Shown here: piece by piece, positions 9,570 through 57,414 of the stretch
Position numbering within the stretch: position 1 is the stretch's first letter
Layout of the letters: the number at the start of each line of letters is the position of its first letter
Origin: Candidatus Aminicenantes bacterium
GTDB taxonomy: Bacteria; Acidobacteriota; Aminicenantia; Aminicenantales; UBA4085
Assembly: GCA_026393895.1 (NCBI GenBank)
Contig: JAPKZG010000092.1
Coordinates: 6,246 to 70,245, forward strand
DNA length: 64,000 bases
Reading direction: 5' to 3'
Position numbers and translations under genes: made by a program
The notes under the pieces: model-generated
What the model saw: the letters and a program-made list of their open reading frames with translations, nothing else
Told to the model about the DNA's origin: nothing
The model's database searches: none

Positions 9570-9594
9570 CCTGATCAAGCTCCAACTACAACTC

Positions 9595-9633
9595 AAACCC
9601 GCCCCGGCTCCGGCCGGGGCGGGTTTTCTTTTT
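9595..9633 (+). terminator. Rho-independent terminator
   Basis: AAACCCGCCCCGGC-TCCG-GCCGGGGCGGGTTT followed by TCTTTTT. Confidence 0.88.
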
Positions 9634-9781
9634 CCATCTCTTTGACTTCCTGCATCTCCCTATCCGGCCAGACCTCGCCCCCGTTTATCCTGCCTTGACT
9701 CTAACTACGGACGGGAAAGACGGAGAGACAGTCCTCCGCCCGATGGTTGGATAGAGATTGCCCCTCTTTTATGAACGCTTC

Positions 9782-16623: not shown

Positions 16624-16725
16624 GATCGCTCCCCGCGATTATACGCCGTTTCCTCCCCTTCAAAAATAGTTGTTGAGCGGGACGGCGCTGAATTGTATAA
16701 TACCGCGAACTTTCGGAGCCCTCCC

Positions 16726-25972: not shown

Positions 25973-27112
25973 ATGAAATCTCCCCGTCCCCGGATCATCA
26001 TCCCCTATGCCCTGGCGGTTGCGGCCGTCTTCCTGTTCCTGTGGACGCGCCCCCCTCTTCAGTCCTCTAAATTCCCTCCGGCCGAGGATTCCGACATCCT
26101 GGAAAGGGCCGTTCAACACATCCGCGACGATTATGTCGACGAAGCGGACCCGCGCCGGACGATGGAAGGCGCCTTCCAGGGGCTCATCGGATCACTCGAT
26201 CCGATGTCGTCCTACTTGAACCACGACCTGATGGCCCGGGCGTCTTCCCCCCGCGTCGATCAGCTCTATGACGTCGGTTTGGCCGCCTATAAAAGGCCCG
26301 GAGCTTTCCCCGTCGTAGTCGGGATCGCCGAGGGGTCGCCGGCCGAAAAAGCCGGGATTCAAACAGGCGACGCGATCAGCGCGGTCGACGATCGTTCCAC
26401 CCTCGTCTGGAGCCACAACGAATTCCGATTCGCTCTGAAAGACACGGAAGCGAAACCGGTCAAACTCCGCCTGATCCACGAAAACGCGACATCCGAAAAA
26501 ACGGTCGACCGGGTCGCGCCGTATCCGATCTCCCTCGCCTGGACCGAGGAAAAAGGAACGTCGGGCATCGTCCGGATTTTTCATCTTTTTTCCGGAACCG
26601 GGGCCGAGTTCAAATCCTCCGTCCTCCCGAAAGTCGCGGGGAGGAAAGAAACTCTCATCCTCGACCTTCGCGGCTGCCGCGAGGGAGAGATCGAGGAAGC
26701 AAGAATCCTGGTCAATCTCTTCGTGAAAAACCTTCAGGCCGGGACGATCGAGAAAAAGGGCGGGGTTAAAACCGCCTGGGCCTGCCCCGCCGAACCCGTT
26801 CTCCCCGACGTGCCCCTTGTGGTCTGGGTGGATCCGGCGACGATGGGCCCGTCGGAAATCGTCGCCGCGGTCCTGCGCGACCTCAAAAGGGCCGCGGTCG
26901 TCGGCACGACGACGGCCGGTTTCACGGCCGAGCAAAAGCTTTTTCCGCTCAAGACGGGTGATGGGCTGCTCCTGACCGTCGGCGAATTCGTCCTTGCCTC
27001 GGGAGAGAAGATTTTTGAAAAAGGCGTCACGCCGGACGTCAAAATCGAGCCCGACAAGAGATCCCGGCAGGACTATTTTGAGAAGACGAAGGGTTTGCTC
27101 CGTGGCCGCTGA
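25973..27112 (+). CDS. S41/CtpA-family PDZ protein, catalytic residues degenerate
   Basis: LDPMS.Y, GSPAEKAGI, ILDLRG, GV.PD; the SASASE motif reads TMGPSE and TFGKG reads TAGFT. Confidence 0.85.
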   Translation: MKSPRPRIIIPYALAVAAVFLFLWTRPPLQSSKFPPAEDSDILERAVQHIRDDYVDEADPRRTMEGAFQGLIGSLDPMSSYLNHDLMARASSPRVDQLYDVGLAAYKRPGAFPVVVGIAEGSPAEKAGIQTGDAISAVDDRSTLVWSHNEFRFALKDTEAKPVKLRLIHENATSEKTVDRVAPYPISLAWTEEKGTSGIVRIFHLFSGTGAEFKSSVLPKVAGRKETLILDLRGCREGEIEEARILVNLFVKNLQAGTIEKKGGVKTAWACPAEPVLPDVPLVVWVDPATMGPSEIVAAVLRDLKRAAVVGTTTAGFTAEQKLFPLKTGDGLLLTVGEFVLASGEKIFEKGVTPDVKIEPDKRSRQDYFEKTKGLLRGR

Positions 27113-28821: not shown

Positions 28822-30588
28822 CTAGTCCCTCCGGACTTCAAAGAGGACGGTATTTTCGGCGATCTCCTTCAAACTCCGGCCGGCCGTTCCGCGCGGCAGG
28901 ATCCAGCAATGGGCTTTTTTCCCCTGGAAATAATCCATGGCGTGGGTGATGACCCGGTGCAAGGGAACGCTCTCGCGGACGACCAGGTTGGCGACGATCA
29001 TCAGCCAATTGATCGAATAATGGCTGATGTTCGACCCGCCGCGGAGGAGCTGGGTCACGGACGGTCCGGCGGTTTTCTTCTTGGCGTGGCCGAAGTCAGG
29101 GGCCTCGGGTTTCCCGACTGTCTTGAGTCCGGCCGACCGGGCTGATGCCTTCGCCCAGGCCGCCACCGCCCCGCAGGACGAGATGCGGTCGAAATCGCAA
29201 TCGAAAATATCCATGACCAGCTCGAAGGCCGGTGAAAAACCCGTCTCGACCGGGAGCCGGAACGACGGCTTGAAAACTTCCGACGCTTCGGCCAGGCGGG
29301 GACGGAGAACGGCCGAAGCGGGGGCGTCCGCCGCCGCGGCGGCCTCATAAATCCGGGTGTCGCGGCGCACGTTCCTGATGTCCGAAAAAACCCCCCGCGG
29401 CAGATGCCAGCAGACGGCCTTGTCGACGCCGAAATATCCGATCGTGAAGGCCGCCGCCTTCTCCCGCGGCAGCCGGGCGCAGGTGAAGCAATTGGCCGCG
29501 GCCACGTTCCCGAACCGGCGGTAATTGATGGCGCTCGTTTCGATGTACTGGACGAGCGTATCGCCGTCGCCCATTTCGGGATTCGAAACCATCGGTTCGC
29601 CGAAGGGAATCATATCGATCGCCTTGCAGAGATCGCGGCTCCATTTGCCGACCTGTTTGAGGGAAGGTTTCTTTTTTTCGGGGAGGACGAAGTCCAGGGC
29701 GATTTCCTCGCCGTATTTGTCGATCTCGAGCCGCCGTTGAAACTCCGGGTACGGAACGGCTGAAATATCGGGCGAATACCAGCTGGTTTTGATCCCAGCG
29801 GCCTTGAAATTGCGCCGGGCGTTACGCTCGGCGAACCTGAACGTGCGCCTCCCACGCGATCCCGCGGTCAGGCTGAACGGCCCGCCCATGTAGCTGACGT
29901 TGGTGAATTGGACGACCCGGACATCGTCAAAAATGCACTCCATCTGCCGCCAGCTCCCCGGGGCCTCGAAGGGCTGAAGGAGAAGGGCGCCGGTCTGGTG
30001 GATGGTGATGCCGCCTTCGCGGAGGGCGGCGTAGACGCTCTCGTAAAAACTGGTGTCGAACAGGCTCCGGGCCGGGCCGATGGGATCGGTCGAGTCGATG
30101 ATAATCACGTCGCATTGGCCCTTCATCTTCCGGATAACCTCGGCTCCGTCGCCGATGATCAGATGAAAACGGGAGTCGTTCCAGATCCCCCCGGAAATCG
30201 CCGGCAGGTGCTCGCGGCAGGTGTCGACGACGACCTGATCGATCTCGGCCATCGTCACGCTCTTGACACCGGGATGGCGGAGAACCTCCCGGGCCACGCC
30301 GCCGTCGCCACCGCCGATAATCAGGACGTTTTCCGGCGTTTTTTCCCGGGCGAACAACGGCCAGAGGCCGATCCACTCGTGATAAATGCCCTCGTCCTCC
30401 TCGGTCAGCTGGACGATCCCGTCCAGAACGAGGACGCGCCCGAACCTCTCGGTATCGAGAATCATCAGCTTCTGAAAACCCGTCGGTTTTTCGGGAACGA
30501 CGACCCGCTTGACCTTGAACCCGTAGGTCACGTCCGTATAGAGGTCTTCGTAGAACCAGAGTTCCTTGCCGCGTTTCACCAGGCCCAT
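28822..30588 (-). CDS. speE: Spermidine synthase (aminopropyltransferase) fused to two tandem SpeD/AdoMetDC-like domains
   Basis: LDGIVQ..DE.IYHE, VLIIGGGDGG, EID, IIDSTDP; then two ~110-aa repeats ending CWxLPRG, with QYIETS/FTC and GPS/ISHY motifs. Start ATG 30588 after AAGGA. Confidence 0.88.
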   Translation of the reverse strand: MGLVKRGKELWFYEDLYTDVTYGFKVKRVVVPEKPTGFQKLMILDTERFGRVLVLDGIVQLTEEDEGIYHEWIGLWPLFAREKTPENVLIIGGGDGGVAREVLRHPGVKSVTMAEIDQVVVDTCREHLPAISGGIWNDSRFHLIIGDGAEVIRKMKGQCDVIIIDSTDPIGPARSLFDTSFYESVYAALREGGITIHQTGALLLQPFEAPGSWRQMECIFDDVRVVQFTNVSYMGGPFSLTAGSRGRRTFRFAERNARRNFKAAGIKTSWYSPDISAVPYPEFQRRLEIDKYGEEIALDFVLPEKKKPSLKQVGKWSRDLCKAIDMIPFGEPMVSNPEMGDGDTLVQYIETSAINYRRFGNVAAANCFTCARLPREKAAAFTIGYFGVDKAVCWHLPRGVFSDIRNVRRDTRIYEAAAAADAPASAVLRPRLAEASEVFKPSFRLPVETGFSPAFELVMDIFDCDFDRISSCGAVAAWAKASARSAGLKTVGKPEAPDFGHAKKKTAGPSVTQLLRGGSNISHYSINWLMIVANLVVRESVPLHRVITHAMDYFQGKKAHCWILPRGTAGRSLKEIAENTVLFEVRRD

Positions 30589-30846
30589 GGCCGTTGTCCT
30601 TTCCTTGAAATCCGATGGAGCCACATTATAGCGAAACCCCGCCGGCGCGCAATGCCCCCACAATTGCCGATAGCGGATATTTCCCCCGGAGATATTCCCG
30701 AACGGGATGCAAATCGGAATTCCAGGGACATGAACGAAATCTCTTGATTTCGTATCGTGTCCCGGAATTCCTCAACCTGGGCTTTCCCGTCCTTGCTTTC
30801 CCGCACTGGTCGCGTTATGATTTTACCGTCCGACAGGAGAAAACCG

Positions 30847-31404
30847 ATGAAACGCATCTCCTTTGCTTCCGGGGCCGCTTTTGCGGCGGGCGTGGTCCTG
30901 ATTTGTCTGGGACAAACGGGCTGCAAGTCCTACAATGACCAGCAAATCAAAGCGTCCCTCGAAATCGTCGACGTGAACACCAGCTGGACGATGAAGGAAT
31001 ACCGGCAGTGGCCGAATCCCAAACTGACCCTGGTCCCGACCGTGACCTTCCGGCTCAAGAACAACTCGGCCGAAATCCTCCGCTTCATCAACGTCAACGC
31101 CATTTTCAAAGAGTTGAATGCCGTCGAGAATTTGGGCGATTGTTTCAGGGCCGCCATCCGGAGCGAAGGCCTTGCCCCGGGCGCGACCAGCCCGCTGATC
31201 ACCTTGAAATCCAATTTCGGAATCGCCGGGACGAACCTCGAATCCTTTAAAATCAACCCCCAATGGCGGACGTATTACGTTAAGCTCTTCATCCAGATGG
31301 GAGGCCCGCGTCACGTTCCCATGGGCGAATTCCGCGTCTCCCGGCAGATCGATTTTCAGGAAGACAAGGCCGTCTACCAGGAGAAGAAACCCGCCGGGAA
31401 ATGA
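30847..31404 (+). CDS. Hypothetical exported protein, possible lipoprotein
   Basis: Signal-like N-terminus with ..TGC; host codon usage. Confidence 0.7.
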   Translation: MKRISFASGAAFAAGVVLICLGQTGCKSYNDQQIKASLEIVDVNTSWTMKEYRQWPNPKLTLVPTVTFRLKNNSAEILRFINVNAIFKELNAVENLGDCFRAAIRSEGLAPGATSPLITLKSNFGIAGTNLESFKINPQWRTYYVKLFIQMGGPRHVPMGEFRVSRQIDFQEDKAVYQEKKPAGK

Positions 31405-31419
31405 CGGCCGGACCGGCGG

Positions 31420-32400
31420 TCAGCTTTTGTCTTCGAACGGGTTGGGTTTGAGAATCTTGATGTAATTCTTCGTTTTGATTTCGGCCAGGAACTTCTGGAC
31501 TTCCACGTTCTGTTTTTCTATACCGATTTTTTCGGTGATCGAACCCCGGGCTTCATCGAACGGCAGAACGCGACTGTCCTTCCGGTCCTCCACCTGAAGC
31601 AAGTACCATCCGTTCTTGTTCTGGACCCAGGACGTCACCTCGCCCTTTTTCAGCGGTTTGACGGCCGCGAGCAAGGTCTTGTCGAGTTCGTTTTCTTTGA
31701 ACGTTCCCAGACTGCCCTTGGCCTCCTTGAGGGGTTCGTCGGAATCGGTTTCCGCAACCGTTTCGAACGGCGTTCCGGACTTGACCTTCGCCTCGATCTC
31801 GGCTTTCCGCGCTTCCAGGGCGGCGGCTTCCTTGTTCTCAATCGTCAAATAGACCGCCCGCAGTTGATATTCGTCCGGAACGACGAATTCGTCCTGGTGT
31901 TTCTTGTAATAATCCACGATTTCCGCGTCGTCGATCACGACCTTCCGGCCGACCTCGTTGCGGAGGACCGCCTCCCGCATGATCCGCTTCTCCATCGTCC
32001 CGATCCAATCGTCGTAATTGTAGCCTTGCTGAGACAGGGCTCGTTTGAATTCGTCGTCGCTTTCGATCTCGTTGGTCTTCTTGATGTTCTCGACGATCAT
32101 TTTCAACTGGTCCGTAACGTTGATGTTCATCGTTTTGGCCATCTGGAGGAGCAGAACGTCCGTGATCATTTCGTCGAGGATGTGGGTCTTGACGAATTCG
32201 ATCGCCTTGTCCAGGGCTTCTCCCTTGTACTGCGCCTGGGCCGCCTGGAGGCGTTCATCGTATTCGCGCTTGAACTCCGAAAGGGTGATGGCTTCGTCGT
32301 TGACGATCGCGACGATTTCCTCGACGACCTGCTGGGCCGAGCCGAAAACGGCCGCGCCGAGAAGAAGGATTCCGGCCAGGATGGTTTTACGCTGCAACAT
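31420..32400 (-). CDS. SurA-like peptidyl-prolyl isomerase/chaperone
   Basis: IVAIVNDEAITLSE, F..VA..DSD, GSLG.F; start ATG 32400. Confidence 0.88.
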   Translation of the reverse strand: MLQRKTILAGILLLGAAVFGSAQQVVEEIVAIVNDEAITLSEFKREYDERLQAAQAQYKGEALDKAIEFVKTHILDEMITDVLLLQMAKTMNINVTDQLKMIVENIKKTNEIESDDEFKRALSQQGYNYDDWIGTMEKRIMREAVLRNEVGRKVVIDDAEIVDYYKKHQDEFVVPDEYQLRAVYLTIENKEAAALEARKAEIEAKVKSGTPFETVAETDSDEPLKEAKGSLGTFKENELDKTLLAAVKPLKKGEVTSWVQNKNGWYLLQVEDRKDSRVLPFDEARGSITEKIGIEKQNVEVQKFLAEIKTKNYIKILKPNPFEDKS

Positions 32401-33408: not shown

Positions 33409-36400
33409 CTATCCCATCCCTATCAACTCCAGCAAGAGCCGGGCGGTTTCACGGAGGATTTCGGCGTCCTTGGGAGACCGCAACGGCAGGCTCATGACGC
33501 CCTGCGGGGTCATCGATCCCCGGGTTTTGTTCAGAACGGCCGAAATCCGGGCCGGGTCGACATCCGTCGAAGGCTGGAACCTCAAAATGAGCCGGTGGTC
33601 GATTCGGTCGACGGCCGCGAGTTTCAGACGCTGGGCCAAGTGCTTGATCCGGCCGTAATGAAGGAGATGGTCGACGCTTTGCGGCGGAGGGCCGAAACGG
33701 TCCCGGATTTCCTCCTCGAGCGCCCGCACCTCGTCCAGGTCGGCGGCTGAGGAAATCCGCTTGTACAGGTTGAGCCGGACGTTCATGGCCGGTATATAGG
33801 CCTCGGGGATACGGACTTCGACCCGGAGGTTGATTTCGCACCGGGCGTCCTCGACCGCTTCGCCCTTGAGTTCCTTGATCGCCTGTCCGAGAAGATGGAT
33901 GAAATAATCATACCCCACGGCCTCCATCGTCCCGTGTTGCTGTTCGCCGAACAGATGCCCGGCCCCCCGGATTTCCAGGTCCTTCATCGCCAGGCGGAAC
34001 CCGGACCCCAGTTCGCTGAATTCCTTGATGGCCTCAAGCCGCTTCCGGGCGATCGGAGTGAGTTCCGAAAAGGGAGGCACGAGAAAGTAGGCGAATGCCT
34101 GGCGGGAGGAACGGCCGACCCGGCCGCGCAATTGATAGAGCTGGGCCAGGCCGAAATGATCGGCCCGGTGGACGAGAAGCGTGTTGACCAGGGGGATGTC
34201 TATCCCGTTTTCGATGATCGTCGTCGAAATGAGGACGTCGTGCTTCTGATTAATGAAATCGATCATCCTCTTCTCGAGTTCGGCCGGGGCCATCTGCCCG
34301 TGAACCGTCACAAGGCGCGCCTCCGGGACCCATTCGCGGATTTTCGCCGCCAGCGTGTCCATCTCCTCGATTTTGTTGAGAATGTAATAGACCTGGCCGC
34401 CGCGCGCGAGTTCCTGCTTGATCGCCCCCGTGATCAGCCGCGGGGAGAACGTCGTCACGACGGTATGGACGGCCAGGCGGTCCTTGGGCGGCGTTTCGAT
34501 CAGGCTGATGTCGCGGAGGCCGGTCAACGAAAGGTTGAGGGTCCGGGGAATGGGCGTGGCCGTCAGCGTCAGGACGTCGACGCTGGCCGTCAAGTGCTTG
34601 ATTTTTTCCTTGTGGGAGACGCCGAAGCGTTGTTCCTCATCGACGATGAGCAGGCCGAGGTCGCGGAAAGCGACGTCGGCCGAAAGGAGACGATGCGTTC
34701 CGACGACGACGTCGACCCGGCTGTTCTTCAGCTCGTCCAAGATTTTTCGCTGCTCGGCCTTGGACTGGAACCGGGTCAGGGCCGCGATGCGGACGGGAAA
34801 CAGGACCATCCGCCCGGAAAACGTCTTGAAATGCTGGCTGGCCAGAACGGTCGTCGGGCAAAGAACGGCGACTTGCTTTCCGTCCATGACCGCTTTGAAC
34901 GCGGCCCGGATCGCGACCTCGGTTTTGCCGTAGCCGACGTCGCCACAGAGAAGCCGGTCCATGGGGACGTCGGTTTCCATATCCGTCTTGATATCCCCGA
35001 TCGAACGGAGCTGGTCCTCGGTTTCCTCGAATTCAAACGTCTTTTCGAATTCCTCCTGCCAGCTCCCCTCCGGGCTGAAGGCGAATCCCTTGATGGATTT
35101 GCGCTGGGCGTAAAGTTCCAGAAGCTCATGGGCCAGTTTTTGAACGGCCTTTTTCGTCCGTTCCTTGGTTTTCTGCCAGTTGCCGGTGCCGAGTTTGTCG
35201 AGGAGGGGAAGCCCGGTTCCGACGGGCGTGTATTTCTGGACGAGGTTTAAATCCTCGACGGGAACGAACAGGGTGTCGTCGTCCCGGTAGCCGAGTTCCA
35301 TGAATTCGGCCGGGCGGCCTTCCACGTCCATTTTGACCAACCCCCGGAAAACGCCCACGCCGTAATCGGCATGGACGATGTAATCGCCGGCCTTGAGGTC
35401 CTGGAATTGGGTGATGGTCGGCCGGGCCGCGGGCCGGGCGGCGATGATCCGTTCCTCGGTGAGGATGTCCTCCTCGGCGTAGAAATACACCTTTTCCCGC
35501 GGATAGCCGAACCCGCGCTCGAGATCGCCCAGGCAGAGGCAGATCTCGCCGCTTGAGGCGGCCACCAGAGGCGAATCCGCCTCGAGCGAGGGAATTTCGC
35601 GCGTCGCGAGCAAGGCGCCGATTTTCTTCCGGATCTGGGCGGTGGACAGAAAAATCACGCAGCGGTCGCGTTCCTCGTGAACCCGCCGCATCGTCTCGAG
35701 AAAGAAAAAGATCTTGTTATCGAACCGCGGCACGGGTTGGAAACCGAAGGCGAACTCCCGGCGGTTGTCGGCGGATTCGAGCTCCCCGCAGAAAACGGCT
35801 TCGGCCCGGAGCCGCGCGTAGAGAGCGGTTGGATAAATCGCCTCGAGCGGAGGCGCGTCCGTCCTCGTTTTTCTAACGGCCGTCTCCTGGGCCCGAAGGT
35901 CGGTCATCACCTCGTCCCATTCCTTTTCGATTTCCTCCGGATGATCGAAGACGAAAACCGCGTCCGAAAGATATCGGGAAAACGGGACGGACGATGGGTC
36001 CGGGCCTACCGGCGCTTCCGCAAGCGAGGGAACGAGCGTGCTGTCCGTCTGGTGGACGGCCCGTTGGGTGGAAGGGTCGAACTCGCGGAGCGAAACGATC
36101 CGGTCGCCGCCGAATTCAACCCGAACCGGATTTTTTTGCCAGGGGGAAAAGACGTCGACGATTCCGCCCCGGAAGGCGTATTCGCCCCGGAACGAGATCA
36201 AATCCTCCCGGGCATAGCCGAAAACCGCCAGGCGTTCGATCAAACGGTCCCGGTCAAAGTCGGCGTTCTTGTTCAAGCGGAGGAAAAGATCCGGCAGGCG
36301 CTCCGGGCCCGGAAACGGCCGAAGGAGCCCGAAGAGACTCGTCACGGTCAGGACCGGCGGGCGGCTCAACAGGTCGAAAAAATACCTCATCCGGGAAGCG

Positions 36401-36750
36401 ACCGCGTCCAGCGACGGGGCGGCGCCCTGGTAGGGATTTTCAGACAAGGCCGGCAGGTTCCGGACGATTTTTGTCGAGCCGAGCTGACGGATGAAAAAGC
36501 GGGCCCGGTCCTCAAATTCGGCCAAGGGCCGGGAGGCCGGACGGACGAACACGACCCGTTTCGGGCCGGAAAGAGCGAGCTGGACGAAAAGATACGGAAC
36601 GGCCGCCTCCGTCAGTCCGGAAATCGAGAGGCGCGGCCGGTCCTCCGCCGCAAACAGCGAGGCCTGCCCGTCCGGGCTTTTCGGAAGAGACGACACCGCC
36701 CGGACGAGGTCCTTGAATTCGGCCGTCTCCTTCAGGAAATCTAAACTCAT
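33409..36750 (-). CDS. mfd: Transcription-repair coupling factor
   Basis: RGGIVDVF, CGDVGYGKTEVA, DEEQRFG, TATPIPRTL, QLRGRVGR, TRCF C-terminal domain. Confidence 0.97.
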   Translation of the reverse strand: MSLDFLKETAEFKDLVRAVSSLPKSPDGQASLFAAEDRPRLSISGLTEAAVPYLFVQLALSGPKRVVFVRPASRPLAEFEDRARFFIRQLGSTKIVRNLPALSENPYQGAAPSLDAVASRMRYFFDLLSRPPVLTVTSLFGLLRPFPGPERLPDLFLRLNKNADFDRDRLIERLAVFGYAREDLISFRGEYAFRGGIVDVFSPWQKNPVRVEFGGDRIVSLREFDPSTQRAVHQTDSTLVPSLAEAPVGPDPSSVPFSRYLSDAVFVFDHPEEIEKEWDEVMTDLRAQETAVRKTRTDAPPLEAIYPTALYARLRAEAVFCGELESADNRREFAFGFQPVPRFDNKIFFFLETMRRVHEERDRCVIFLSTAQIRKKIGALLATREIPSLEADSPLVAASSGEICLCLGDLERGFGYPREKVYFYAEEDILTEERIIAARPAARPTITQFQDLKAGDYIVHADYGVGVFRGLVKMDVEGRPAEFMELGYRDDDTLFVPVEDLNLVQKYTPVGTGLPLLDKLGTGNWQKTKERTKKAVQKLAHELLELYAQRKSIKGFAFSPEGSWQEEFEKTFEFEETEDQLRSIGDIKTDMETDVPMDRLLCGDVGYGKTEVAIRAAFKAVMDGKQVAVLCPTTVLASQHFKTFSGRMVLFPVRIAALTRFQSKAEQRKILDELKNSRVDVVVGTHRLLSADVAFRDLGLLIVDEEQRFGVSHKEKIKHLTASVDVLTLTATPIPRTLNLSLTGLRDISLIETPPKDRLAVHTVVTTFSPRLITGAIKQELARGGQVYYILNKIEEMDTLAAKIREWVPEARLVTVHGQMAPAELEKRMIDFINQKHDVLISTTIIENGIDIPLVNTLLVHRADHFGLAQLYQLRGRVGRSSRQAFAYFLVPPFSELTPIARKRLEAIKEFSELGSGFRLAMKDLEIRGAGHLFGEQQHGTMEAVGYDYFIHLLGQAIKELKGEAVEDARCEINLRVEVRIPEAYIPAMNVRLNLYKRISSAADLDEVRALEEEIRDRFGPPPQSVDHLLHYGRIKHLAQRLKLAAVDRIDHRLILRFQPSTDVDPARISAVLNKTRGSMTPQGVMSLPLRSPKDAEILRETARLLLELIGMG

Positions 36751-36769
36751 GGGAGCGAACGGACATTAT

Positions 36770-36828
36770 ACGTACGGAGACAGCCAGGAACAACCGCGGC
36801 GCGGTTGTTACTGGCTGTCTCCGTACGT
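36770..36828. repeat. Near-perfect 59-bp palindrome (28-bp stem, 1 mismatch, 3-nt loop)
   Basis: ACGTACGGAGACAGCCAGGAACAACCGC-GGC-GCGGTTGTTACTGGCTGTCTCCGTACGT. Confidence 0.9.
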
Positions 36829-36942
36829 CCTCTATTGTGCCTTGACAATCAGGACGAGGGGCGAAGGTGCATGACAATGATAAATTCGGGGCCGCATCAC
36901 TATGTTCCAAGTAAAAGTAGTTAACTGCCGTGAGGCTCGCCG

Positions 36943-37003
36943 CTATAACGTAGCGTTTCAGCGGTACCCGCTCGCGGGCGTTCCCTGCAAGCGCTTGTTA
37001 GTC
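36943..37003 (-). mobile_element. attC site (distal cassette)
   Basis: GACTAAC-AAGCG-CTTGCAG...GCTGAAA-CGCTAC-GTTATAG. Confidence 0.85.
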
Positions 37004-38178
37004 AGCATGCCATCGATGTACGATCCTTCGCGTGTTATACCGTTTGAAAGTATCTCATCCAAGTCCTCAGGCCAAAGCATCGCTGGTCGTCCATCGGATC
37101 CACGGAAATTAGAACCAAGAGCGAAACCGTACCCAAGAACATTGTAGAGCTTGATGGCTTGTGCGAGCGTAGTCGGTTCGGAGATGTGGAGGATTGAGTA
37201 GTAGAGCGCCATCTTGACTGAGTTTTGGCCTGCTTCGGCAGGGCTCATGTCTAGCCAAGGCGACGGCCGATTGCGGTAGACTTCTTCTCCAAGGCGTCCG
37301 AGACACCATAGGAAGATCTCGAATGCAGCATCGGCCAGGGCTTCGTGAGACCACCGCAGCACGATCTTCCACGCATCGGGCCCATTCTCAATAGCGATCG
37401 CTGAGGCGGCTGGTCTTGGCGGATTTACAATTAAGACGCGGCGATTTCCTCCTGCTCGAAAGCGGAAATGTCGCGATAACCGCCAAGACGATGGGATAAC
37501 GGAGATCTTCAGCGGCTTATCCACCATCCGAACTGAATAACGCACATGCTTTCCATCGGAAGACTGTGTCACTATAGTACGAGATACTCGAGATATGTGG
37601 TTACCGAGTTGCTTAGTTACTTTCTTCTGTGAGCAAAGGTACGATTTCACCTCTGCTATGCCAACAAGAATTGCGCGCTCCCGTGTGGAGGAGGTCACCA
37701 GCAAATGTACGTCAGCGGCTTTCGCCAGAGTTGTACCGCTCGACTTCGGTGCCATGATAGAGTCGCCGACCCAGATCTGTGTAGCTCCAGGTATCCTCCG
37801 AGCCGTCTTGAGCTCCCCTGCAAGTTGCACAATCGGTCCCATTGCGAGCAACTCAGCGAGTGAACCCTGAATCGCAGTAACTACACGCGATACGGCGAAC
37901 CGAATTGCCCAATAGTAATCCTCGGCACGTGCTGTTCCGGAATATTCTGAATCCGGGGCATCACAGTCCTTAAGCAAGTTTTTCATTCTCTCCGCATGTT
38001 TTCCGATTGCTTCAGACAAAGTACTGCGGAAAATCTCTAGCGGAGTCATTCGACATGGAAATACAGCATCAGCCTCAACCGCCTTACCGAGAGCTTGAAG
38101 AAGGTCTTTTCGCAAGTGCGGTTCCAGCATACGCATCGTTAATGCGCTTGAGAAATCTATTCTCTTTGGCGATCTCAT
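36958..38178 (-). CDS. Cassette ORF, putative PD-(D/E)XK nuclease-fold protein
   Basis: KAADVHLL..LVGIAEVKSY motif; the ORF reads into its attC (..LTNKRLQ..); RBS AAGGAG. Confidence 0.6.
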   Translation of the reverse strand: MRSPKRIDFSSALTMRMLEPHLRKDLLQALGKAVEADAVFPCRMTPLEIFRSTLSEAIGKHAERMKNLLKDCDAPDSEYSGTARAEDYYWAIRFAVSRVVTAIQGSLAELLAMGPIVQLAGELKTARRIPGATQIWVGDSIMAPKSSGTTLAKAADVHLLVTSSTRERAILVGIAEVKSYLCSQKKVTKQLGNHISRVSRTIVTQSSDGKHVRYSVRMVDKPLKISVIPSSWRLSRHFRFRAGGNRRVLIVNPPRPAASAIAIENGPDAWKIVLRWSHEALADAAFEIFLWCLGRLGEEVYRNRPSPWLDMSPAEAGQNSVKMALYYSILHISEPTTLAQAIKLYNVLGYGFALGSNFRGSDGRPAMLWPEDLDEILSNGITREGSYIDGMLTNKRLQGTPASGYR

Positions 38179-38206
38179 CTAGTCAAACCTGTCTCTCCTT
38201 AGATCC

Positions 38207-38281
38207 GACTAACGCCATACACAATCAGCTGACAATAAAGCGCGGCGCAATTGCCAGTCCGAGTCAATGCGGTTGTTATAC
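38207..38281 (-). mobile_element. attC site (partly degenerate)
   Basis: GTATAAC-AACCG-CATTGAC..CTGGCAAT/ATTGTCAG..GTTAGTC. Confidence 0.75.
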
Positions 38282-38287
38282 GAGCTC

Positions 38288-39154
38288 CTATGCTTTTCCC
38301 GAAGCAATATCATAAACAAGCGACGCATAACCTACTAAGTATCTCGTTAGCTCGTCAAACGGGTCAAGCTGGATATCCAATGGAATCTCCGGATGTATTC
38401 TTATCTCCAATATTGAAATAACATTTTCATATTCACCCGTACCAAAAAACCTGTAGATAAAAGCCTCATAGTCCTCGTGATATTTTCCATTATTCCAGAA
38501 ACCGCACTTTTTTAAAACGCTTTCCAGAAAGGCATCTCGACTGGTTACCAAGCCGCCTCTATGAACAATGTAATGGCGCAAATGAGCAATCAACTCAATT
38601 GCCAGCTTCAAATTTACATCCAATCTGTTTTTTATCTCAAGATCCACGAGCTGCGGATAGAGCTCACGTAGGCGAGTGAGAATTGATTGCGGAGTGTCTC
38701 GTTTGTTCTTGGCTCGATCCAGATACCAAGCGTAGTCCTTACCAACGAGGTCTGCAATAGAAATATTTCCGAAATCGCTCATTATCCATGACGAAATGTC
38801 TTTGTATCCAAGATGCGCGTAGGTAGCTTCTAAATAATCCTCGAATTCTTCATATGCTTCAGCTAATAGCCAGCAATATTGCTTGTTCTTCTGAAAAACA
38901 ACTAGCTTCTCTCGGTCTTCAAGTGAAGACTCACGGAATCCATATTTTTCCCAAGAACCGGTTTTGGGATCTATATAGTACATCGCATCCAACGATGAAC
39001 TTGATTCTTTTGGTGCAGGATTTTCTTTCAGCTTTTCAGCGTATTGATTGAGCTGGAGGAGTTCTTTCTTTGCAGTGGCTTTGGCAGCTCGCTTGTATAG
39101 AACAATATCCGCAACTCGCTCACTGAAGATCAAAAAGATTTCTTTAAGTGTCAT
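38288..39154 (-). CDS. Cassette ORF, putative HEPN-domain RNase
   Basis: AYEEFEDYL helix and RHYIVH (R-X4-H) motif. Confidence 0.6.
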   Translation of the reverse strand: MTLKEIFLIFSERVADIVLYKRAAKATAKKELLQLNQYAEKLKENPAPKESSSSLDAMYYIDPKTGSWEKYGFRESSLEDREKLVVFQKNKQYCWLLAEAYEEFEDYLEATYAHLGYKDISSWIMSDFGNISIADLVGKDYAWYLDRAKNKRDTPQSILTRLRELYPQLVDLEIKNRLDVNLKLAIELIAHLRHYIVHRGGLVTSRDAFLESVLKKCGFWNNGKYHEDYEAFIYRFFGTGEYENVISILEIRIHPEIPLDIQLDPFDELTRYLVGYASLVYDIASGKA

Positions 39155-39180
39155 TGTTCATTACCTGCGAAGGGCCATTC

Positions 39181-39238
39181 GTATAACGCCCGGCTTCAGC
39201 GGGAGCCCCCGGCGATCTAATGCATGCCGTCGTTATCC
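39181..39238 (-). mobile_element. attC site
   Basis: GGATAAC-GACGG-CATGCAT...GCTGAAG-CCGGGC-GTTATAC. Confidence 0.75.
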
Positions 39239-39250
39239 CTCATTATATCT

Positions 39251-40150
39251 CTATGAGAAGATGGCGATTGGCAGTACCTGAAAGACCGGACCCTTCGCCT
39301 CGAGTTCCATGGAGGGGATCTTGAAGCCTTGAGTCTTTAATTGTTCAGACAATCCTGCGAGAGCATTATTCAGTATTTTCTCCGGCATAGCGCTAAGTGC
39401 GGTCTTTCTTATCAGATTGATCGAATCTTTATCGTCATTAATCACGCTTATTATTTTACCGAGCACATTAAAGTGGCCATCTACAAGATCAGACATAGTT
39501 GGGTCATTGAGAAACTCTCGTTCCAACGTTATCACCGCTCTATAACCGCAGGTCAATATGTCCGTAATAATATCTACGGTGTCGCCCGCCTTCAGGCTTT
39601 CCAAGAATTGTTCCATCTGCGTTTTAATTGCTTTGTTTTTGTCTGGAGTCTGGAATTTTTGAATCTTATTCTGTTGCTGAGGAGGGCCTTGAGAAAAAAG
39701 AATGGCCATATTCATGATCCCAATAAACGTATCCATGGTCTGGATTAATGGGTTCTTTCTCAATGGCGCCGTAAATTCTACGATCTGTCGTATCTCTGGT
39801 TTGTTATTGTCATCTATGAAACTCAACTTATTATCGGCAACAAGAATCTTTCGAAGCATTTGAAACATTGATGCCGGCGTGTGAACCTTTTCTTCGTTTA
39901 TTTGAGTTCCCGAAGAACCATCTTTTTGTTTCTCCCTGTTTCCTGAAACATCTATTCGCAGAAGGGCAGACAGGGCTTTATTAAGGCCAAAAGTCGCTCC
40001 GTACTGCTGCTTGTCACTGGCCGAAGACGATTCCATGGATGTAACCCTGGTGACTGTAGCAATCCCGCCTTGAAGCATGGCGATCATATCGAATACTATA
40101 CGTTGGTTGAGATAGACGGGAATGATCAACTCGTTTTCAATGCTAGACAT
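39251..40150 (-). CDS. Cassette ORF, DUF6414-like protein
   Basis: IPVYLNQRIVFD N-terminus, HTPAS.F, VLGKI, V.PIAIF C-terminus (family recalled from memory). Confidence 0.6.
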   Translation of the reverse strand: MSSIENELIIPVYLNQRIVFDMIAMLQGGIATVTRVTSMESSSASDKQQYGATFGLNKALSALLRIDVSGNREKQKDGSSGTQINEEKVHTPASMFQMLRKILVADNKLSFIDDNNKPEIRQIVEFTAPLRKNPLIQTMDTFIGIMNMAILFSQGPPQQQNKIQKFQTPDKNKAIKTQMEQFLESLKAGDTVDIITDILTCGYRAVITLEREFLNDPTMSDLVDGHFNVLGKIISVINDDKDSINLIRKTALSAMPEKILNNALAGLSEQLKTQGFKIPSMELEAKGPVFQVLPIAIFS

Positions 40151-40177
40151 CTGAAAGACCTCCCTTCTTTATCGCGG

Positions 40178-40248
40178 GGCTAACGTTCGAGCTAAGCGGC
40201 CATTTTGAGCGAAAGCGAAAAATGGTCCGCTTGAGCGAATGGTTAGGC
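40178..40248 (-). mobile_element. attC site (canonical)
   Basis: GCCTAAC-CATTC-GCTCAAGCGGACCATTTT...AAAATGGCCGCTTAGC-TCGAAC-GTTAGCC. Confidence 0.92.
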
Positions 40249-40337
40249 GCCAGGCATACAACTTTCGAGATGCATAAGACATATTTTCACAATAGTATCT
40301 TGGCAGACAGCGTTAAGCACACCATGAAGATCTACAA

Positions 40338-40832
40338 TCATATAATCACGATAAGACGTGTAACCACCACAACAAGAAGACAAGACCAAACAAACATAAA
40401 CAAATAGAAAACTGACAACAGGCCTTTACGGCTAGAATAGTACTTAAGAGGAGGCTTGTGATTTCTCAATATTTCTAGGAGAGCTTTGTTATGAGCAGAA
40501 GGATGATTCCTGAAAATCCATACATCTGGAAGAGCCTTTTCCTCGAATTCAGCTAATCTATACTCCCAATAACTTACCCAAAAGTACGCGCCCTTCACTA
40601 CTCGAAGGGAGAAGACTGACAATAACATTCCTGTAACTGCAAGAGCGAGAGTCATCATTGTCTCGTGAAGAGATGCACCACGAGCTACTCCAAGAAAAGC
40701 TTGCGTTGAAAAAGCTAGCAGCGCACCTTGAACAAGTACACATATATTGGATCGAGAGACAAAATGGTTCAACTCCAGTTCTCGACATTTTTGCAGAATC
40801 TCGAAAGCCTTATTAACGCTGTCATCATCCAT
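40338..40832 (-). CDS. Cassette ORF, small multi-TM membrane protein (RipA/8xMP-like)
   Basis: R..E...F..RSN....Q.AL, W...WE....E; about 3 hydrophobic segments; ATG 40832 after GGAGG. Confidence 0.6.
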   Translation of the reverse strand: MDDDSVNKAFEILQKCRELELNHFVSRSNICVLVQGALLAFSTQAFLGVARGASLHETMMTLALAVTGMLLSVFSLRVVKGAYFWVSYWEYRLAEFEEKALPDVWIFRNHPSAHNKALLEILRNHKPPLKYYSSRKGLLSVFYLFMFVWSCLLVVVVTRLIVII

Positions 40833-40850
40833 AATGCCCTCCTTCCTGGC

Positions 40851-40870
40851 GCCTAACATCGTTTACATAG
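40851..40870 (-). mobile_element. attI-like recombination junction
   Basis: TATGTAA-ACGAT-GTTAGGC: a core GTTRRRY with no upstream attC hairpin. Confidence 0.6.
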
Positions 40871-41112
40871 ATCCATATAAAAACCGAATACCTCATTAAG
40901 TGCCGTAAAAGACGCCTGTGAAAGGAGTATCAGACAGGTCATAACCAATGAAATATCAGCCGGTTGCGTCATAATGCGATTTTTATCAAGATGATTGATC
41001 CGAAATCGACGCGGACGGGACACCAAACAACGGCCGAAATAAACGGATTTTTCCGCTGCGACAAAACCGACTTCTAGCATTGTCCGCAACCAATTCCCTT
41101 GAATATAAATTG

Positions 41113-41142
41113 AGATTAACACCCTAATTTAAACGATGTCAA
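41113..41142 (-). promoter_or_regulatory. Candidate Pc-like promoter facing the cassette array
   Basis: TTGACA-N18-TAATCT with a TGn extension. Confidence 0.55.
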
Positions 41143-41220
41143 ATAGATTGCGTAGAGCGCCGTCATCCCGATATAATGAACCGGTTATTTCCGATGTCCG
41201 CCGGCCGCAAGGAGAATCAC

Positions 41221-42381
41221 ATGTCCCTCCGCTTTTCGCCGTCCTCGGCGCTTCCCGTGCTCGTTCTAATCGCCCTGGCCGTTTTCGGACGGGCGGCCGG
41301 AGCCCAATCCCCGGAGCGTTTTTTCGACACGGCGTCCGTCGCTCACGACACGGTCCGCCTGACGGTCTTTTACCCCTCCGTCAAAACCCTCAAGAACATC
41401 TTCGCCCTCAAGGCCCAAGGTTTCATTCCCTACAAAAACCTCGAGATCATCGGCGTTTATCACGTGAAGGAAAAAACGGACTACCGGGAATCGGTCCGGT
41501 ATCTTCAGGACGAAAAAATCGAAGGCGTCCGTTTTCACGCGGTTGCCGCGGATTTGAGCGTCGAAACGCTGTATGGGCCGAACGCGGCCTCGGACGAGTT
41601 CCGGAAAATTTTCGACCTCTCCGACGGGATGATCTTCTTCGGCGGCCCCGACATGCCCCCGGCCGCCTATGGTGAAAAAACGGACTTCCGGACCGTCATC
41701 GAGGATCCGTACCGCCATTACCTCGAGTTGTCCATGATCTTCCATCTCCTGGGAGGCGGGCAAAACGAGGGCTTCAAGGGATTCCTTGAAAACCGGCCCG
41801 ACTTTCCGATCCTCGGAATCTGCCTCGGGATGCAGAGCCTCAACGTCGGCGCCGGCGGAACGATGGTCCAGGACCTTTGGAGCGAGATTTACGGCAAAAC
41901 CACCGTCGAGGAAGCCGTCGCTCTGGACCGGGAGCAATGGCACAAGAACCCTTATGCCATGATCCCGCCGCTCGACCGGGATCTCGGCCCTTACATGCTC
42001 CATCCGATCAAGCTTTCGGCCGAAGGCCGCACCTGGAAAGCCATGGGGATGACCGCTGCTGACCGGCCGTATGTCGCGAGTTCCCATCATCAAAGCCTCG
42101 AAAAAATCGGGAAAGGCTTCACGGTCGTCGCGACCTCAACGGACGACCGGATCATCGAGGCGATCGAACACGAAAAATTCCGAAACGTCCTGGGCGTCCA
42201 GTTTCATCCGGAGTTCCGGAAGCTCTGGGACGCGACGCCCGAATATAAAACCACGCCGGACGACCGCGATCTGTTCGGTTACCGGACGCAGCTCGAGGCC
42301 CATCCGCCGAGCTATGAATTTCACAAGCGGCTCTGGATCTGGTTTTTCACCCGGATGAAAGCCCCGGGCCGGACGACCTGA
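41221..42381 (+). CDS. Peptidase C26 / gamma-glutamyl hydrolase family, with signal peptide
   Basis: GGPDM.P..YG, PILGICLGMQ, SHHQ, GVQFHPE. Confidence 0.88.
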   Translation: MSLRFSPSSALPVLVLIALAVFGRAAGAQSPERFFDTASVAHDTVRLTVFYPSVKTLKNIFALKAQGFIPYKNLEIIGVYHVKEKTDYRESVRYLQDEKIEGVRFHAVAADLSVETLYGPNAASDEFRKIFDLSDGMIFFGGPDMPPAAYGEKTDFRTVIEDPYRHYLELSMIFHLLGGGQNEGFKGFLENRPDFPILGICLGMQSLNVGAGGTMVQDLWSEIYGKTTVEEAVALDREQWHKNPYAMIPPLDRDLGPYMLHPIKLSAEGRTWKAMGMTAADRPYVASSHHQSLEKIGKGFTVVATSTDDRIIEAIEHEKFRNVLGVQFHPEFRKLWDATPEYKTTPDDRDLFGYRTQLEAHPPSYEFHKRLWIWFFTRMKAPGRTT

Positions 42382-55122: not shown

Positions 55123-55687
55123 GGATCGACTTCATTCTTTCGATGGACCGATCGATCAGTTCGACCTGATCGGCGCCGGTCAGACGGCTTTTCATCCGGG
55201 TCTCGGCGATATCGGCGGCCAGTTCCGCCGTATATTCCTTGAGCTCCCGGATCCCGGCTTGAAGCCGGACGGCCACTTCCTGGGCCGCCAGCGTCCGGAT
55301 CCGTTCCGCTTCCTTCGCGGCCAGTTCCTTGATTTTTTCCGTTTCGGCAAGGCCGTCGGCGGCGGCCCGGGCTTTCAGACGGGCGGCTTCGTTCTCGAGC
55401 GCCGCGGCCTGTATCCGGGCCTCGGCCAGCTTGGCTTCCGCCGTCAGCCGCTCCCGGCGGGCAACGTCGAGAAGATCACGGATCATTTCCGTTTTTTTCG
55501 TCAACATCGCCGTGACGGGTTTCCGCAAAAAAAAGATCATCGCGCCGAATAAAATGACGAAATTGATGACTTGCCAAATGAACCCGGACCCGCCGGATTC
55601 GCGAGATTCGGCGGTTTTCTCGTCGACGGATGCGAACACCAGGAAAGGAACAAGAAGAAGCACGGCGAGGGCTCGTTTCACGCTCAT
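55100..55687 (-). CDS. atpF: ATP synthase subunit b
   Basis: WQVINF.IL...F..KP TM segment followed by a coiled coil; internal ATG 55687. Confidence 0.85.
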   Translation of the reverse strand: MSVKRALAVLLLVPFLVFASVDEKTAESRESGGSGFIWQVINFVILFGAMIFFLRKPVTAMLTKKTEMIRDLLDVARRERLTAEAKLAEARIQAAALENEAARLKARAAADGLAETEKIKELAAKEAERIRTLAAQEVAVRLQAGIRELKEYTAELAADIAETRMKSRLTGADQVELIDRSIERMKSIHEESAAR

Positions 55688-55996
55688 GACCGGCTCATCA
55701 GCTTTTCTTCGATTTTCCGTGATCATCCGGTTCTTTTCCTTGAGGGCCGCAAGCTCGATCCGGCCGCGGGTTTCCTCGGCTTCCAGGCGGGCCGCCTTGA
55801 GTCCGGCCTCGACGTCCCTCAACCGGCGGGCCGATTCGTCCAGGTTCGATTGGGCCGCGGTCATGTCGTCCTGCAGACGTTTTTCCCGCTCGTCCATCAC
55901 CTTCCGGAGAGGCTTGAAAAAGACGCGGTTCAGGACAAAAACAAGGATCCAGACCAGGGCAAAAGTAACGATGACGGTCGCGTCGATTTCAAGCAT
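55684..55996 (-). pseudogene. ATP synthase subunit b', internally deleted and frameshifted so that it reads into atpF
   Basis: The b' N-terminus (FFKPL.KVMDER) covers only ~95 aa; a plausible original tail KIEEKLMSRS* lies in the +1 frame with an ATGA overlap on atpF. Confidence 0.7.
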
Positions 55997-56082
55997 GAGG
56001 CTTCAGTCCGGCTGTTTTTCTGAAACCAAGAGTTTATCATACCGATTCGTCAAAAACCAAACAAGAGAAGCCCCGGGCCGGT

Positions 56083-57414
56083 TCAGGCGGACGGCCGGAT
56101 TTTCTTGACTTCGCCGACCAGGAAGAGGCTCCCGGTGACGACGACCGTTCCGGCCGGGCCGGCGATACGGCGGGCCAGGGAAAGAGCCCGCCGAAGGTCG
56201 GGTTCGAGGATGATTTTCGCGGCAAACTCCGGCGCTTTCGCCCGGATTTCAGCGGGCGCGGCCGCCCGCTTATAAGGGATCGTCGTCAGGATGATCTTGC
56301 GGACCCGGGGAAAGAGGATTCGGGCGACGCGGCCGACGGCTTTGTCCTTCATGATCGCGAAAACGAGAACGGGCGGCCGGGGACACGTCTTTTCGATGAA
56401 CGCGGCCACGGCCGCGGCCCCGGCTTCGTTATGGGCGCCGTCGAGATAAACGCGGGGCCGCCGCCCGATTCGCTCGAGCCGGCCTTCCCATCGCGTCGTT
56501 CGAATGCCGTCCTCGATCGCCTTGGCTCCCACCGGGCGCCAAGACCGGTCGAGAACCCGCGCGGCCGCCGCGGCCACGGCCGCGTTCCGGCCCTGGTGCT
56601 CTCCCGGAAGACCGGGAGAAAGATGATAGACATCGTCTCCGGTCCGGTAATCGAAGGAAGGCCGTCGGCCTTGGCGTCGCGGTTCAAACGAAGCACCGCG
56701 GCCGAAAACTTCGATCAAGGGCGCTTTTTCCTCCCGCGCCCGGCGCCGGATCACGGCCAGAGCCGGGCCGCGGGAAACGCCGCAAACGACCGGAATTCCG
56801 GGTTTGATGATCCCGGCTTTCTCGAAAGCGATCTTCGCCAGGGAATTTCCCAGATATTCCATATGGTCTTTGGACACGGTCGTGATGACCGAAACAAGGG
56901 GAATCACCACATTGGTGGCGTCGAATCTTCCCCCCATTCCGACCTCGAGGACCGCGCAATCGACGTGTTTTTCGCAAAAATGGAGCATGGCCGCGGCGGT
57001 CAGGACTTCAAAAAAGGTCGGGGAGGCCTCGAGCGTTTTCGCGGTCCGGAGTTTCTCGATCTTCGATTTGAGCGTCCCGATATGACGGCGAAGGTCCCGT
57101 TCGGGGATCAACCGCCCGTCGACGCGGATCCGCTCTTCGAGGCGGACAAGGTGAGGCGACGTGTAAAGCCCGACCCGGAGGCCGGCCCGCGACAGAATCT
57201 CGGCCAGCATCGCGCAGACCGACCCCTTGCCGTTCGTCCCGGCGACATGAATCGTGGAAAAGGCCAAGTGCGGATCGCCCAGCGTATCAAGCAGGATCCG
57301 CATGTTGCCCAGACCGAGCTTGATGCCGAACCGTTGAAGATCGTGCAAATACGCGCGCCAGGCGGCGGAGGTCGGTATTCTCGCCTGCGGCGCGGCGTTC
57401 CGCGGCGTGTTCAC
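56083..57414 (-). CDS. folC: Folylpolyglutamate synthase / dihydrofolate synthase
   Basis: HVAGTNGKGS, YTSPHL, EVGMGGRFDATN, DGAHN; GTG start overlapping the accD stop. Confidence 0.94.
   Translation of the reverse strand: MNTPRNAAPQARIPTSAAWRAYLHDLQRFGIKLGLGNMRILLDTLGDPHLAFSTIHVAGTNGKGSVCAMLAEILSRAGLRVGLYTSPHLVRLEERIRVDGRLIPERDLRRHIGTLKSKIEKLRTAKTLEASPTFFEVLTAAAMLHFCEKHVDCAVLEVGMGGRFDATNVVIPLVSVITTVSKDHMEYLGNSLAKIAFEKAGIIKPGIPVVCGVSRGPALAVIRRRAREEKAPLIEVFGRGASFEPRRQGRRPSFDYRTGDDVYHLSPGLPGEHQGRNAAVAAAAARVLDRSWRPVGAKAIEDGIRTTRWEGRLERIGRRPRVYLDGAHNEAGAAAVAAFIEKTCPRPPVLVFAIMKDKAVGRVARILFPRVRKIILTTIPYKRAAAPAEIRAKAPEFAAKIILEPDLRRALSLARRIAGPAGTVVVTGSLFLVGEVKKIRPSA

Follow-up and report, generated by a model that had tools for sequence, protein, structure and literature searches.

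Clusters of attC sites lacking an integron-integrase are termed CALINs, and loss of the integrase has been proposed as a possible origin in a CALIN survey (PMC4889954). According to the same survey, recognisable intI pseudogenes, for which the criterion was more than 50% profile coverage, lie near only 15 of 279 CALINs, and attI sites could not be searched for outside classes 1–3 (PMC4889954). Integron surveys usually cannot tell the origin or the activity of a CALIN, because attI is known only in a handful of clinical classes and an intI pseudogene can seldom be recognised. The integron remnant of Treponema phagedenis consists of attC sites and cassettes without intI and is regarded as static (PMC3607928). 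Here, we describe an array of four gene cassettes in a genome of a Candidatus Aminicenantes bacterium, an uncultured organism from sediment (order Aminicenantales, assembly GCA_026393895.1), located at positions 36943–41144 of a 64,000-nt stretch of contig JAPKZG010000092.1, to which we refer as the window; positions given without a contig name are those of the window. We estimate a probability of roughly 90% that this locus is a ΔintI integron, an integron that has lost its integrase gene. It is a CALIN by definition, of a co-oriented, Treponema-like type, and both CALINs and integron remnants have already been described. The lineage nevertheless offers a traceable case, in which the origin of a CALIN by integrase loss is directly visible because attI, the promoter of intI and graded scars of intI deletion can all be recognised.

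Like the CALINs of the survey, the window carries two or more attC sites together with cassettes while intI is lacking in the vicinity; it differs from them in that its origin can be traced, with attI, the promoter that formerly belonged to intI and a scar of intI below the pseudogene criterion all kept. The Treponema-type integrons provide a second likeness, since one Treponema lineage also keeps cassettes without intI. However, the Aminicenantales belong to another phylum and carry several small platforms per genome instead of one long array; their platforms have heterogeneous attCs and many independent intI deletions, which often keep the promoter and attI, and there is population evidence of continuing cassette change in them. 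Class 1 integrons with a truncated intI1 can depend on IntI1 in trans, an example of an array with attI that has no functional integrase in cis but can still serve as the substrate of one encoded elsewhere. These integrons are clinical, mobile elements with a divergent intI1 that contains the promoter Pc, and the truncation is usually caused by insertion sequence (IS) elements, whereas the platform in the window is a chromosomal one of the co-oriented type, in which the intI promoter has been fused toward the array by the deletion. In the chromosomal integrons of Xanthomonas, arrays reportedly persist after intI decay at a single locus that is conserved in the genus. By contrast, the distribution here is patchy: at up to two mismatches, the attI motif has 12 sites in 6 of 27 genomes of the family, with no control match, and none in the six congeners. 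A literature search on the integrons of Aminicenantes, judged by titles and abstract openings, returned nothing on this group.

The elements of the platform, all on the minus strand, are listed below in the direction of that strand, with open reading frames (ORFs) given for each cassette.

41115–41142, minus strand: putative former intI promoter (PintI-derived); −35 TTGACA (41142–41137), 16-nt spacer, −10 GTTAAT (41120–41115)
40999–41114, minus strand: putative scar left by intI, about 115 nt; the start region is mutated and followed by decayed remnants
40881–40998, minus strand: leader, homologous to the intI–attI spacer of intact integrons
40851–40880, minus strand: predicted attI; imperfect 16-bp palindrome and simple site ...TAAACGATG|TTAGGC, crossover between 40857 and 40856
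40184–40856, minus strand: cassette A, 673 bp; ORF 40832–40338, 164 aa, 8xMP membrane protein (Pfam E 2.3e-13); attC 40248–40178
39187–40183, minus strand: cassette B, 997 bp; ORF 40150–39251, 299 aa, DUF6414 (Pfam E 1.7e-32); attC 39238–39181
38213–39186, minus strand: cassette C, 974 bp; ORF 39154–38288, 288 aa, no family; attC 38281–38207 with degenerate 3′ arm
36949–38212, minus strand: cassette D, 1264 bp; ORF 38178–36958, 406 aa, no family, GC 0.52; attC 37003–36943

The layout of an intact relative shows what is missing from this platform. In genome G015, which belongs to the same family within the Aminicenantales, an intI gene (344 aa) is followed on one strand by a spacer of 155 nt, then by the same attI motif and two cassette ORFs, and an attC of 44.3 bits lies between the two ORFs. 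This attC was scored with R1, an attC covariance model that is described below. When applied to the surroundings of related IntI genes at 80 loci in many phyla, R1 gave 79 matches with E ≤0.01, which validates the model on independent data. Most of them (62 of 79, at 33 loci) are on the strand of intI and downstream of it, while 14 lie upstream on the opposite strand, at nine more distant loci, and three upstream on the same strand. In line with the arrangement in G015 and these 62 co-oriented downstream attCs, intI in this clade has the orientation of the cassettes and stands between the promoter and attI. An earlier note on this DNA, made from its letters and reading frames, had seen the divergent gene for a C26 peptidase in the place of intI; in this clade, the place of intI is upstream of attI in the orientation of the array.

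The same note had pointed to an attI-like core, and the comparison shows that 40851–40880 is indeed a true attI homologue. It aligns with the motif about 155 nt downstream of the intact intI in G015 and in the metagenome locus L182, and by hand count it is identical in 25 of 30 positions to a site on another contig of the same genome (C45) that directly follows a C-terminal IntI fragment. The palindrome has the consensus TATATGGATCCATATA, from which the window copy deviates by two mismatches in the right arm, and the simple site reads ATAAAC-AWT-G|TTRRRY; the attI1 core has a similar layout. The leader is 79% identical over 149 nt to that of a second platform of the same genome (C50) and 79% identical over 73 nt to the sequence downstream of the intact intI in G015, and a contig from sequencing run X2 shares its positions 40901–40970.

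Between the leader and the promoter, positions 41036–41010 align to the last codons of the G015 intI (17/23 nt), and the scar was also compared with the 5′ remnants in the metagenome deletion classes and in platform C83 of the same genome. As a different assignment, the segment following the promoter was considered as a homologue of the post-stop region rather than of the 5′ end of intI; this was rejected, since C83 and the class II loci hold both segments, separated by in-frame IntI fragments.

The promoter-like element at 41115–41142 lies about 258 nt upstream of the attI crossover and is common to four platforms of the genome and to many metagenome loci. In the intact G015 integron, the ATG of intI lies 6 nt past the end of a TTGACA-17-TAGACT promoter; in C83, the conserved promoter ends 8 nt before the ATG of a 43-codon frame, and in L125, L171 and L172 the same promoter and the first intI codons are fused to IntI residues 289–317. 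We therefore interpret the element, on sequence grounds, as the former and apparently leaderless intI promoter and not as a classical Pc. Its −10 is degenerate here: whereas the sister platforms C50, C93 and C83 have GATAAT or GATAAA, GTTAAT in the window has lost the conserved A at position 2, and a generic promoter scan of the minus strand from 40857 to 41142 called neither this element nor any other. Since intI and the cassettes share one orientation in this clade, such a promoter would aim into the array once intI is lost. Two ideas of the earlier note thus change in part. The Pc-like promoter exists at about the noted distance from attI, but as a worn intI promoter; and the platform does lack a neighbouring intI, but, with a decayed scar between promoter and attI, it is not integrase-less by design.

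An intact integrase is missing from the rest of the assembly as well. In the genome, which is 93.2% complete, no integron integrase exceeds the TIGR02249 cut-off (best 80.2 bits vs 265), and on the contig of the window (C15) neither the TIGR02249 profile nor tblastn with the G015 IntI detected IntI homology. Across the whole genome, tblastn with this query found fragments on C45 and C83 and Xer-like recombinases and nothing else. Full-length IntI above the cut-off is present in 3 of 61 related genomes. What the genome does contain is at least five platforms, each with a different intI deletion and each with at least one model-supported attC (one or two in each of the four besides the window's):

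C15, window positions 36943–41144, minus strand: the platform in the window
C45 (L220), 29500–32300: IntI residues 258–343 at 66% identity, ending …YTHVLNRGPAGVRSPMNGR at the stop
C50 (L217), 15900–17000: platform without any intI remnant
C83 (L219), 55200–56800: 43-codon in-frame mini-ORF made of IntI pieces
C93 (L218), 9300–10100: promoter, then ATG TAA

The C-terminal fragment on C45, which the 30-nt attI site follows directly, is the genome's best TIGR02249 match, and the mini-ORF on C83 consists of the ATG, IntI residues ~90–118 and C-terminal codons, all in frame. Contig C83 also contains, at about 12–41 kb, some 29 kb with a GC content of 0.31–0.51 in a contig of GC 0.6.

The attC sites were assessed with R1 and not with the attC model of IntegronFinder. 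Candidates came from a scan for canonical geometry (R′′ of 7 nt, 4–6 nt, L′′ of 8 nt with one bulge, a variable centre, L′ of 7 nt, 5–7 nt, R′) around 80 metagenome attI loci, and all matches of up to 100 nt, minus those with atypical boxes, gave the 26 aligned attCs on which the model was trained; none of them stems from the genome under study. Downstream of attI, the scan found 38 matches on the array strand vs one on the opposite strand, and upstream eight and four, respectively. In the training alignment, 88.0% of the cells are paired, vs 67.9 ± 1.3% in shuffles, none of 500 of which reached this value, and two-sided changes occur in 15 of 20 pairs; seven L-stem pairs had been selected by the scan, the remaining pairs had not. 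A folding-based scan, with 931 mostly spurious matches genome-wide, was set aside for the geometry scan and the covariance model, while a stricter first scan missed the sites in the window and a plain listing of TAAC...GTTA served for orientation only.

After each of the four cassette ORFs in the window, there is an imperfect palindrome bounded by xxxTAAC and GTTAxxx. Run unfiltered on both strands of the 64 kb, R1 gave 13 matches with E ≤10, and the best four are the four attCs that the earlier note had proposed, all on the minus strand and 0.9–1.3 kb apart: attC A with 49.7 bits (E 3.8e-10), attC B with 17.0 bits (E 0.059), attC C with 15.0 bits (E 0.19) and attC D, the distal end of the array, with 13.9 bits (E 0.36). 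Judged by R1, the three weak sites still fall under the default threshold of E <1 up to which IntegronFinder keeps attCs, as stated in the survey (PMC4889954). Genome-wide, where 150 of 1536 first-look candidates were scored, R1 found six matches with E ≤1, and all of them lie in the five platform contigs in the orientation of the arrays. The four strongest attCs of the genome, one each in four platforms, score 39–50 bits, and C50 scores 26.8, compared with 13.9–17 bits for attC B–D.

The proximal cassette thus has the best site, as the earlier note had it. With the boxes GCCTAAC...GTTAGCC, pairing in every helix and the L′′ bulge at the position of the model, attC A is fully canonical, and its DNA fold is much superior to those of shuffles (z −2.95 and −3.91). 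The sites B and D keep the attC geometry with mismatches. In attC C, the 3′ arm is largely unpaired, with many broken pairs and a poor fold, while its 5′ arm is of a recognisable community type that recurs in L155 and in short contigs from runs X1–X3 breaking at 38278. The folds of attC C and attC D are no better than those of shuffles.

The cassette-specific end complementarity, likewise first noted from the letters of the sequence, could be reproduced at all four cassettes. The start of cassette A is complementary to its own R′′ in 13 of 13 positions (GTTAGGCGCCAGG, 40857–40845, vs CCTGGCGCCTAAC, 40254–40242), and the corresponding values are 6/7 for B, 8/8 for C and 7/7 for D. With the neighbouring R′ box of the array, the match is poorer or equal, at 6/7 for A, 6/7 for B, 5/7 for C and 4/7 for D. 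Such a pattern is the classical footprint of cassettes that were inserted singly after cutting at G|TT.

We propose the following course of events. The ancestor would have been a chromosomal integron with promoter, intI, a spacer of about 155 nt, attI and cassettes on one strand. An integron integrase inserted the cassettes singly at the G|TT of attI, as the cassette-specific R′′/R′ complementarity and the restriction of a pristine attC to the newest, proximal cassette show. By deletion and decay, intI was removed, and what remains is the former promoter, about 115 nt of scar, then the spacer and attI with four cassettes. Today, this copy is probably static and slowly decaying, a view towards which we lean without great firmness because no integrase was found in the 93%-complete assembly and because the promoter and three attCs are worn. 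If the open cassette ORFs are expressed at all, their transcripts would stem either from the former intI promoter in its weakened state or from read-through.

Several observations weigh against this account. The alignment of the intI scar is short and only ~74% identical, and would be weak if it stood alone; three of the four attC calls have E >0.05, by model R1 alone. The assembly, at 93.2% completeness, is split into 106 contigs, and an intact intI could sit in unassembled DNA. Furthermore, attC A and attI look usable, the attI variant being mostly within natural variation, and all four cassette ORFs are intact. Finally, sister platforms without integrase appear to replace cassettes at attI, and being static is not a property of the platform type.

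The strongest alternative accepts the same ΔintI structure but takes the locus to be live, with an integrase acting in trans, either from an unassembled copy in the own genome or from transient mobile DNA, as the earlier note had envisaged. We regard this as possible but doubtful for the present copy. No candidate emerged from the intI search of the genome, which gave no intact copy; related platforms, however, do seem to swap their first cassettes at attI, and the evidence for this comes from metagenomes. While the window itself is a modest result, this apparent activity of the platform family is the more interesting lead.

A search of metagenome contigs with an attI pattern yielded 108 stretches, 80 of which were analysed and collapsed to 68 distinct loci; the pattern was derived from this lineage, and the sample is biased accordingly. 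Informative are those 43 loci in which attI is preceded by 1300 nt or more, the other 25 being too short on this side. Homology to intI upstream of attI is full (≥300 aa) in three of the 43, fragmentary (29–65 aa) in eight and absent in 32, eight of which keep the promoter motif while 24 do not. Among the three loci with full homology, the frame is uninterrupted only in L182 (341 aa). In L128 and L185, intI is interrupted (open frames of 226 and 151 aa), and the conserved IRTVQELLGH stretch of L128 contains a TAG in frame; judging by these two frames, intact attI-linked intI genes would be even rarer than the count of full-length homologues. The genomes of the family agree with this picture, as only one of their 12 attI motifs adjoins a full-length intI. 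Integrase-less attI loci thus far outnumber intact ones, which fits a service in trans.

Several classes of intI deletion are visible among the metagenome loci. In a recurrent junction (class I; L109, L122, L130, L136, L141 and L170), the first ~ten intI codons are joined to a point ~15 nt past the stop. Two diverged types of leader, ~60% alike by eye, accompany this junction, which has a GGAT(A)TTT microhomology on both of its sides; either the deletion was repeated at one spot or the junction was spread by recombination. Two of these loci, L136 and L141, share 96% identity in the upstream flank over 600 nt and 93% in the platform, in addition to the same junction. A second pair, L129 and L118, is 92% identical in the flank and 94% in the platform, with another junction common to both. 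In both pairs, the partners are near-identical to …AAACATTGTT and random beyond, i.e. the similarity ends exactly after the GTT of attI, and the next 800 nt past attI gave no BLAST match between partners. Sites of the attC type lie downstream in L136, L141 and L118, whereas the downstream sequence of L129 is limited to 598 nt. The most straightforward reading of these pairs would be that cassettes were replaced at attI after the loss of intI, by integrase activity in trans, although recurrent identical deletions or a homologous exchange of arrays might also have produced them. Service in trans is thus plausible for the platform family. Natural pairs of platforms that differ only beyond the attI crossover also make the question experimentally tractable.

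For the copy in the window, a live state would be in line with this turnover beyond a shared junction and attI, with the pristine attC and the complete end complementarity of cassette A, and with a cassette similar to B, encoding a DUF6414 protein, that stands first in another platform, L188. On the other side, the assembled genome is without an intact intI, and this copy shows decay at the promoter −10, in attC B–D and at two positions of the attI palindrome. Moreover, if the identical junctions were recurrent or spread by recombination, different cassettes behind them would be no proof of capture after the deletion. A search of sequencing runs listed the array in one run only and in no RNA run. 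In the contigs of this single run, where rare variants are invisible, neither an alternative arrangement nor an alternative joint was seen at the locus.

On a larger scale, we tentatively suggest, as a conjecture that we hold at less than even odds, that a distributed integron might be the normal state in Aminicenantales and neighbouring sediment lineages: many small chromosomal attI platforms that have shed intI would still exchange cassettes precisely at attI, served by the few intact integrases of the community, and the window would be a worn member of this set. If so, most such CALINs would be working docking and expression sites and not fossils, and the loss of intI would be selected for and not accidental, with repeated deletions that often leave a strong leaderless intI promoter aimed at the cassettes.

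The two remaining explanations deny the integron origin of the locus or its integrity, and we consider both very improbable. The locus could be a generic, horizontally acquired island with palindromes and GTT/AAC motifs that resemble attC sites by chance, for which one might invoke that three of the four attC matches have E values of 0.06–0.36 and that attC C and attC D fold no better than shuffles; yet the four sites are the top four of the window, on one strand and each directly after an ORF, attC A reaches E 3.8e-10, attI and leader are homologous to the intact G015 integron, sister platforms of the same genome contain intI fragments, and every genome-wide R1 match lies inside a platform. 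An assembly artefact, i.e. a chimeric contig joining foreign low-GC cassettes to an Aminicenantales chromosome, might be suspected since the genome is metagenome-assembled and attC repeats break assemblies, as the short contigs ending inside attC C and attC B illustrate, but a single 7027-nt Logan contig (run X1) spans 36701–41600 with no differences at a depth of 9.87, close to the 9.41 of the adjoining mfd contig, and four other contigs of the same genome carry the same platform design; run X1 may be the source of the assembly, and hence is not independent support.

With regard to their contents, the four cassettes possibly encode defence-like functions. The cassette B protein is 50% identical to the DUF6414 protein of L188, which is encoded in the first cassette after attI. 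A literature search on DUF6414 and 8xMP found nothing informative, and the proteins of cassettes C and D belong to no Pfam, NCBIfam or PADLOC family; PADLOC and NCBIfam gave nothing usable for any of the four cassette proteins, with PDC-M37A as the sole match (E 0.0056, no passing stretch). An RHYIVH (Rx4H) motif is present in the cassette C protein; among named Atlas clusters, those closest to it are HEPN RiboL-PSP (0.89), and its close unnamed Atlas relatives are mostly from Pseudomonadota; as a lead only, it may be a candidate HEPN-type toxin or defence protein. Cassette D has only unnamed clusters in the Atlas, at 0.90 and with low recognition.

Parts of the array also recur in other contexts. 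The 5′ half of cassette C is found on other contigs of runs X1–X3 and in L155. Halves of attC C (38239–38278) and attC B (39184–39229) are found on short contigs from three runs of one study, with two to four mismatches and with depths of 33.5, 14.9 and 41.8× for attC C and 4 and 5.8× for attC B, and these contigs diverge from the window inside the TAAC box. From this divergence, the attC C and attC B types would be joined to other cassettes in the community.

The attI sites and leaders of the lineage have further features. Two motifs are conserved between the intI stop and attI, TTATGCCGATCCKTATAAG immediately behind the stop and GGCGTCTTATACGGCA some 45 nt ahead of attI, as seen, for example, in 40881–40998 of the window and downstream of intI in L182. 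They hold inverted GTATAAG/CTTATAC repeats and may be accessory sites for the binding of integrase or of a regulator. In genome G014, contig C18 has two perfect attI motifs on the same strand 5.6 kb apart (21066–21090 and 26723–26747), which may represent tandem platforms; IntI is present in this genome only as short fragments.

The array stands between two core genes:

33409–36750, minus strand: mfd (transcription-repair coupling factor); Pfam TRCF, CarD_TRCF_RID, UvrB_inter
41176–42381, plus strand: Peptidase_C26/class-I glutamine amidotransferase gene; Pfam E 2.6e-30

The mfd protein is 83–86% identical at the amino acid level in congeners, and the Peptidase_C26 gene is present in 22 of 27 genomes of the family. 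In the congener G003, both genes are divergent neighbours with a gap of ~530 bp and no array, and in G001 they are separated by a gene of 899 aa with native GC. The segment 36943–41144, in which all four ORFs are intact and lie on the minus strand, is a block of low GC (0.41–0.52) between flanks of 0.60–0.62, and GC is back at the host level no more than ~200 nt past attC D. Homology of the flanks to relatives stops at ~36772 and restarts at ~41145, immediately upstream of the −35 hexamer, as seen in the region upstream of the C26 gene in the relative G002. These data argue for an insertion between mfd and the C26 gene; the patchy attI motif, the heterogeneous attCs and the cassette GC of 0.42–0.52 suggest that the integron was acquired specifically in this lineage and is not an old sedentary one. 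The distal 210 nt have no second copy in the genome, and a comparison of the distal ends of its five platforms revealed no common sequence.

Between the end of the array and mfd, 18 nt upstream of the mfd start, lies a near-perfect palindrome of ~62 nt (36768–36829; 59 nt at 95% self-complementarity), which is single-copy in the genome and missing upstream of mfd in G003. An Rfam search gave only two sub-threshold matches, both to microRNA families and on this hairpin (36766–36832), which we attribute to chance similarity to a hairpin. The palindrome could serve as a terminator or insulator that separates the array from mfd.

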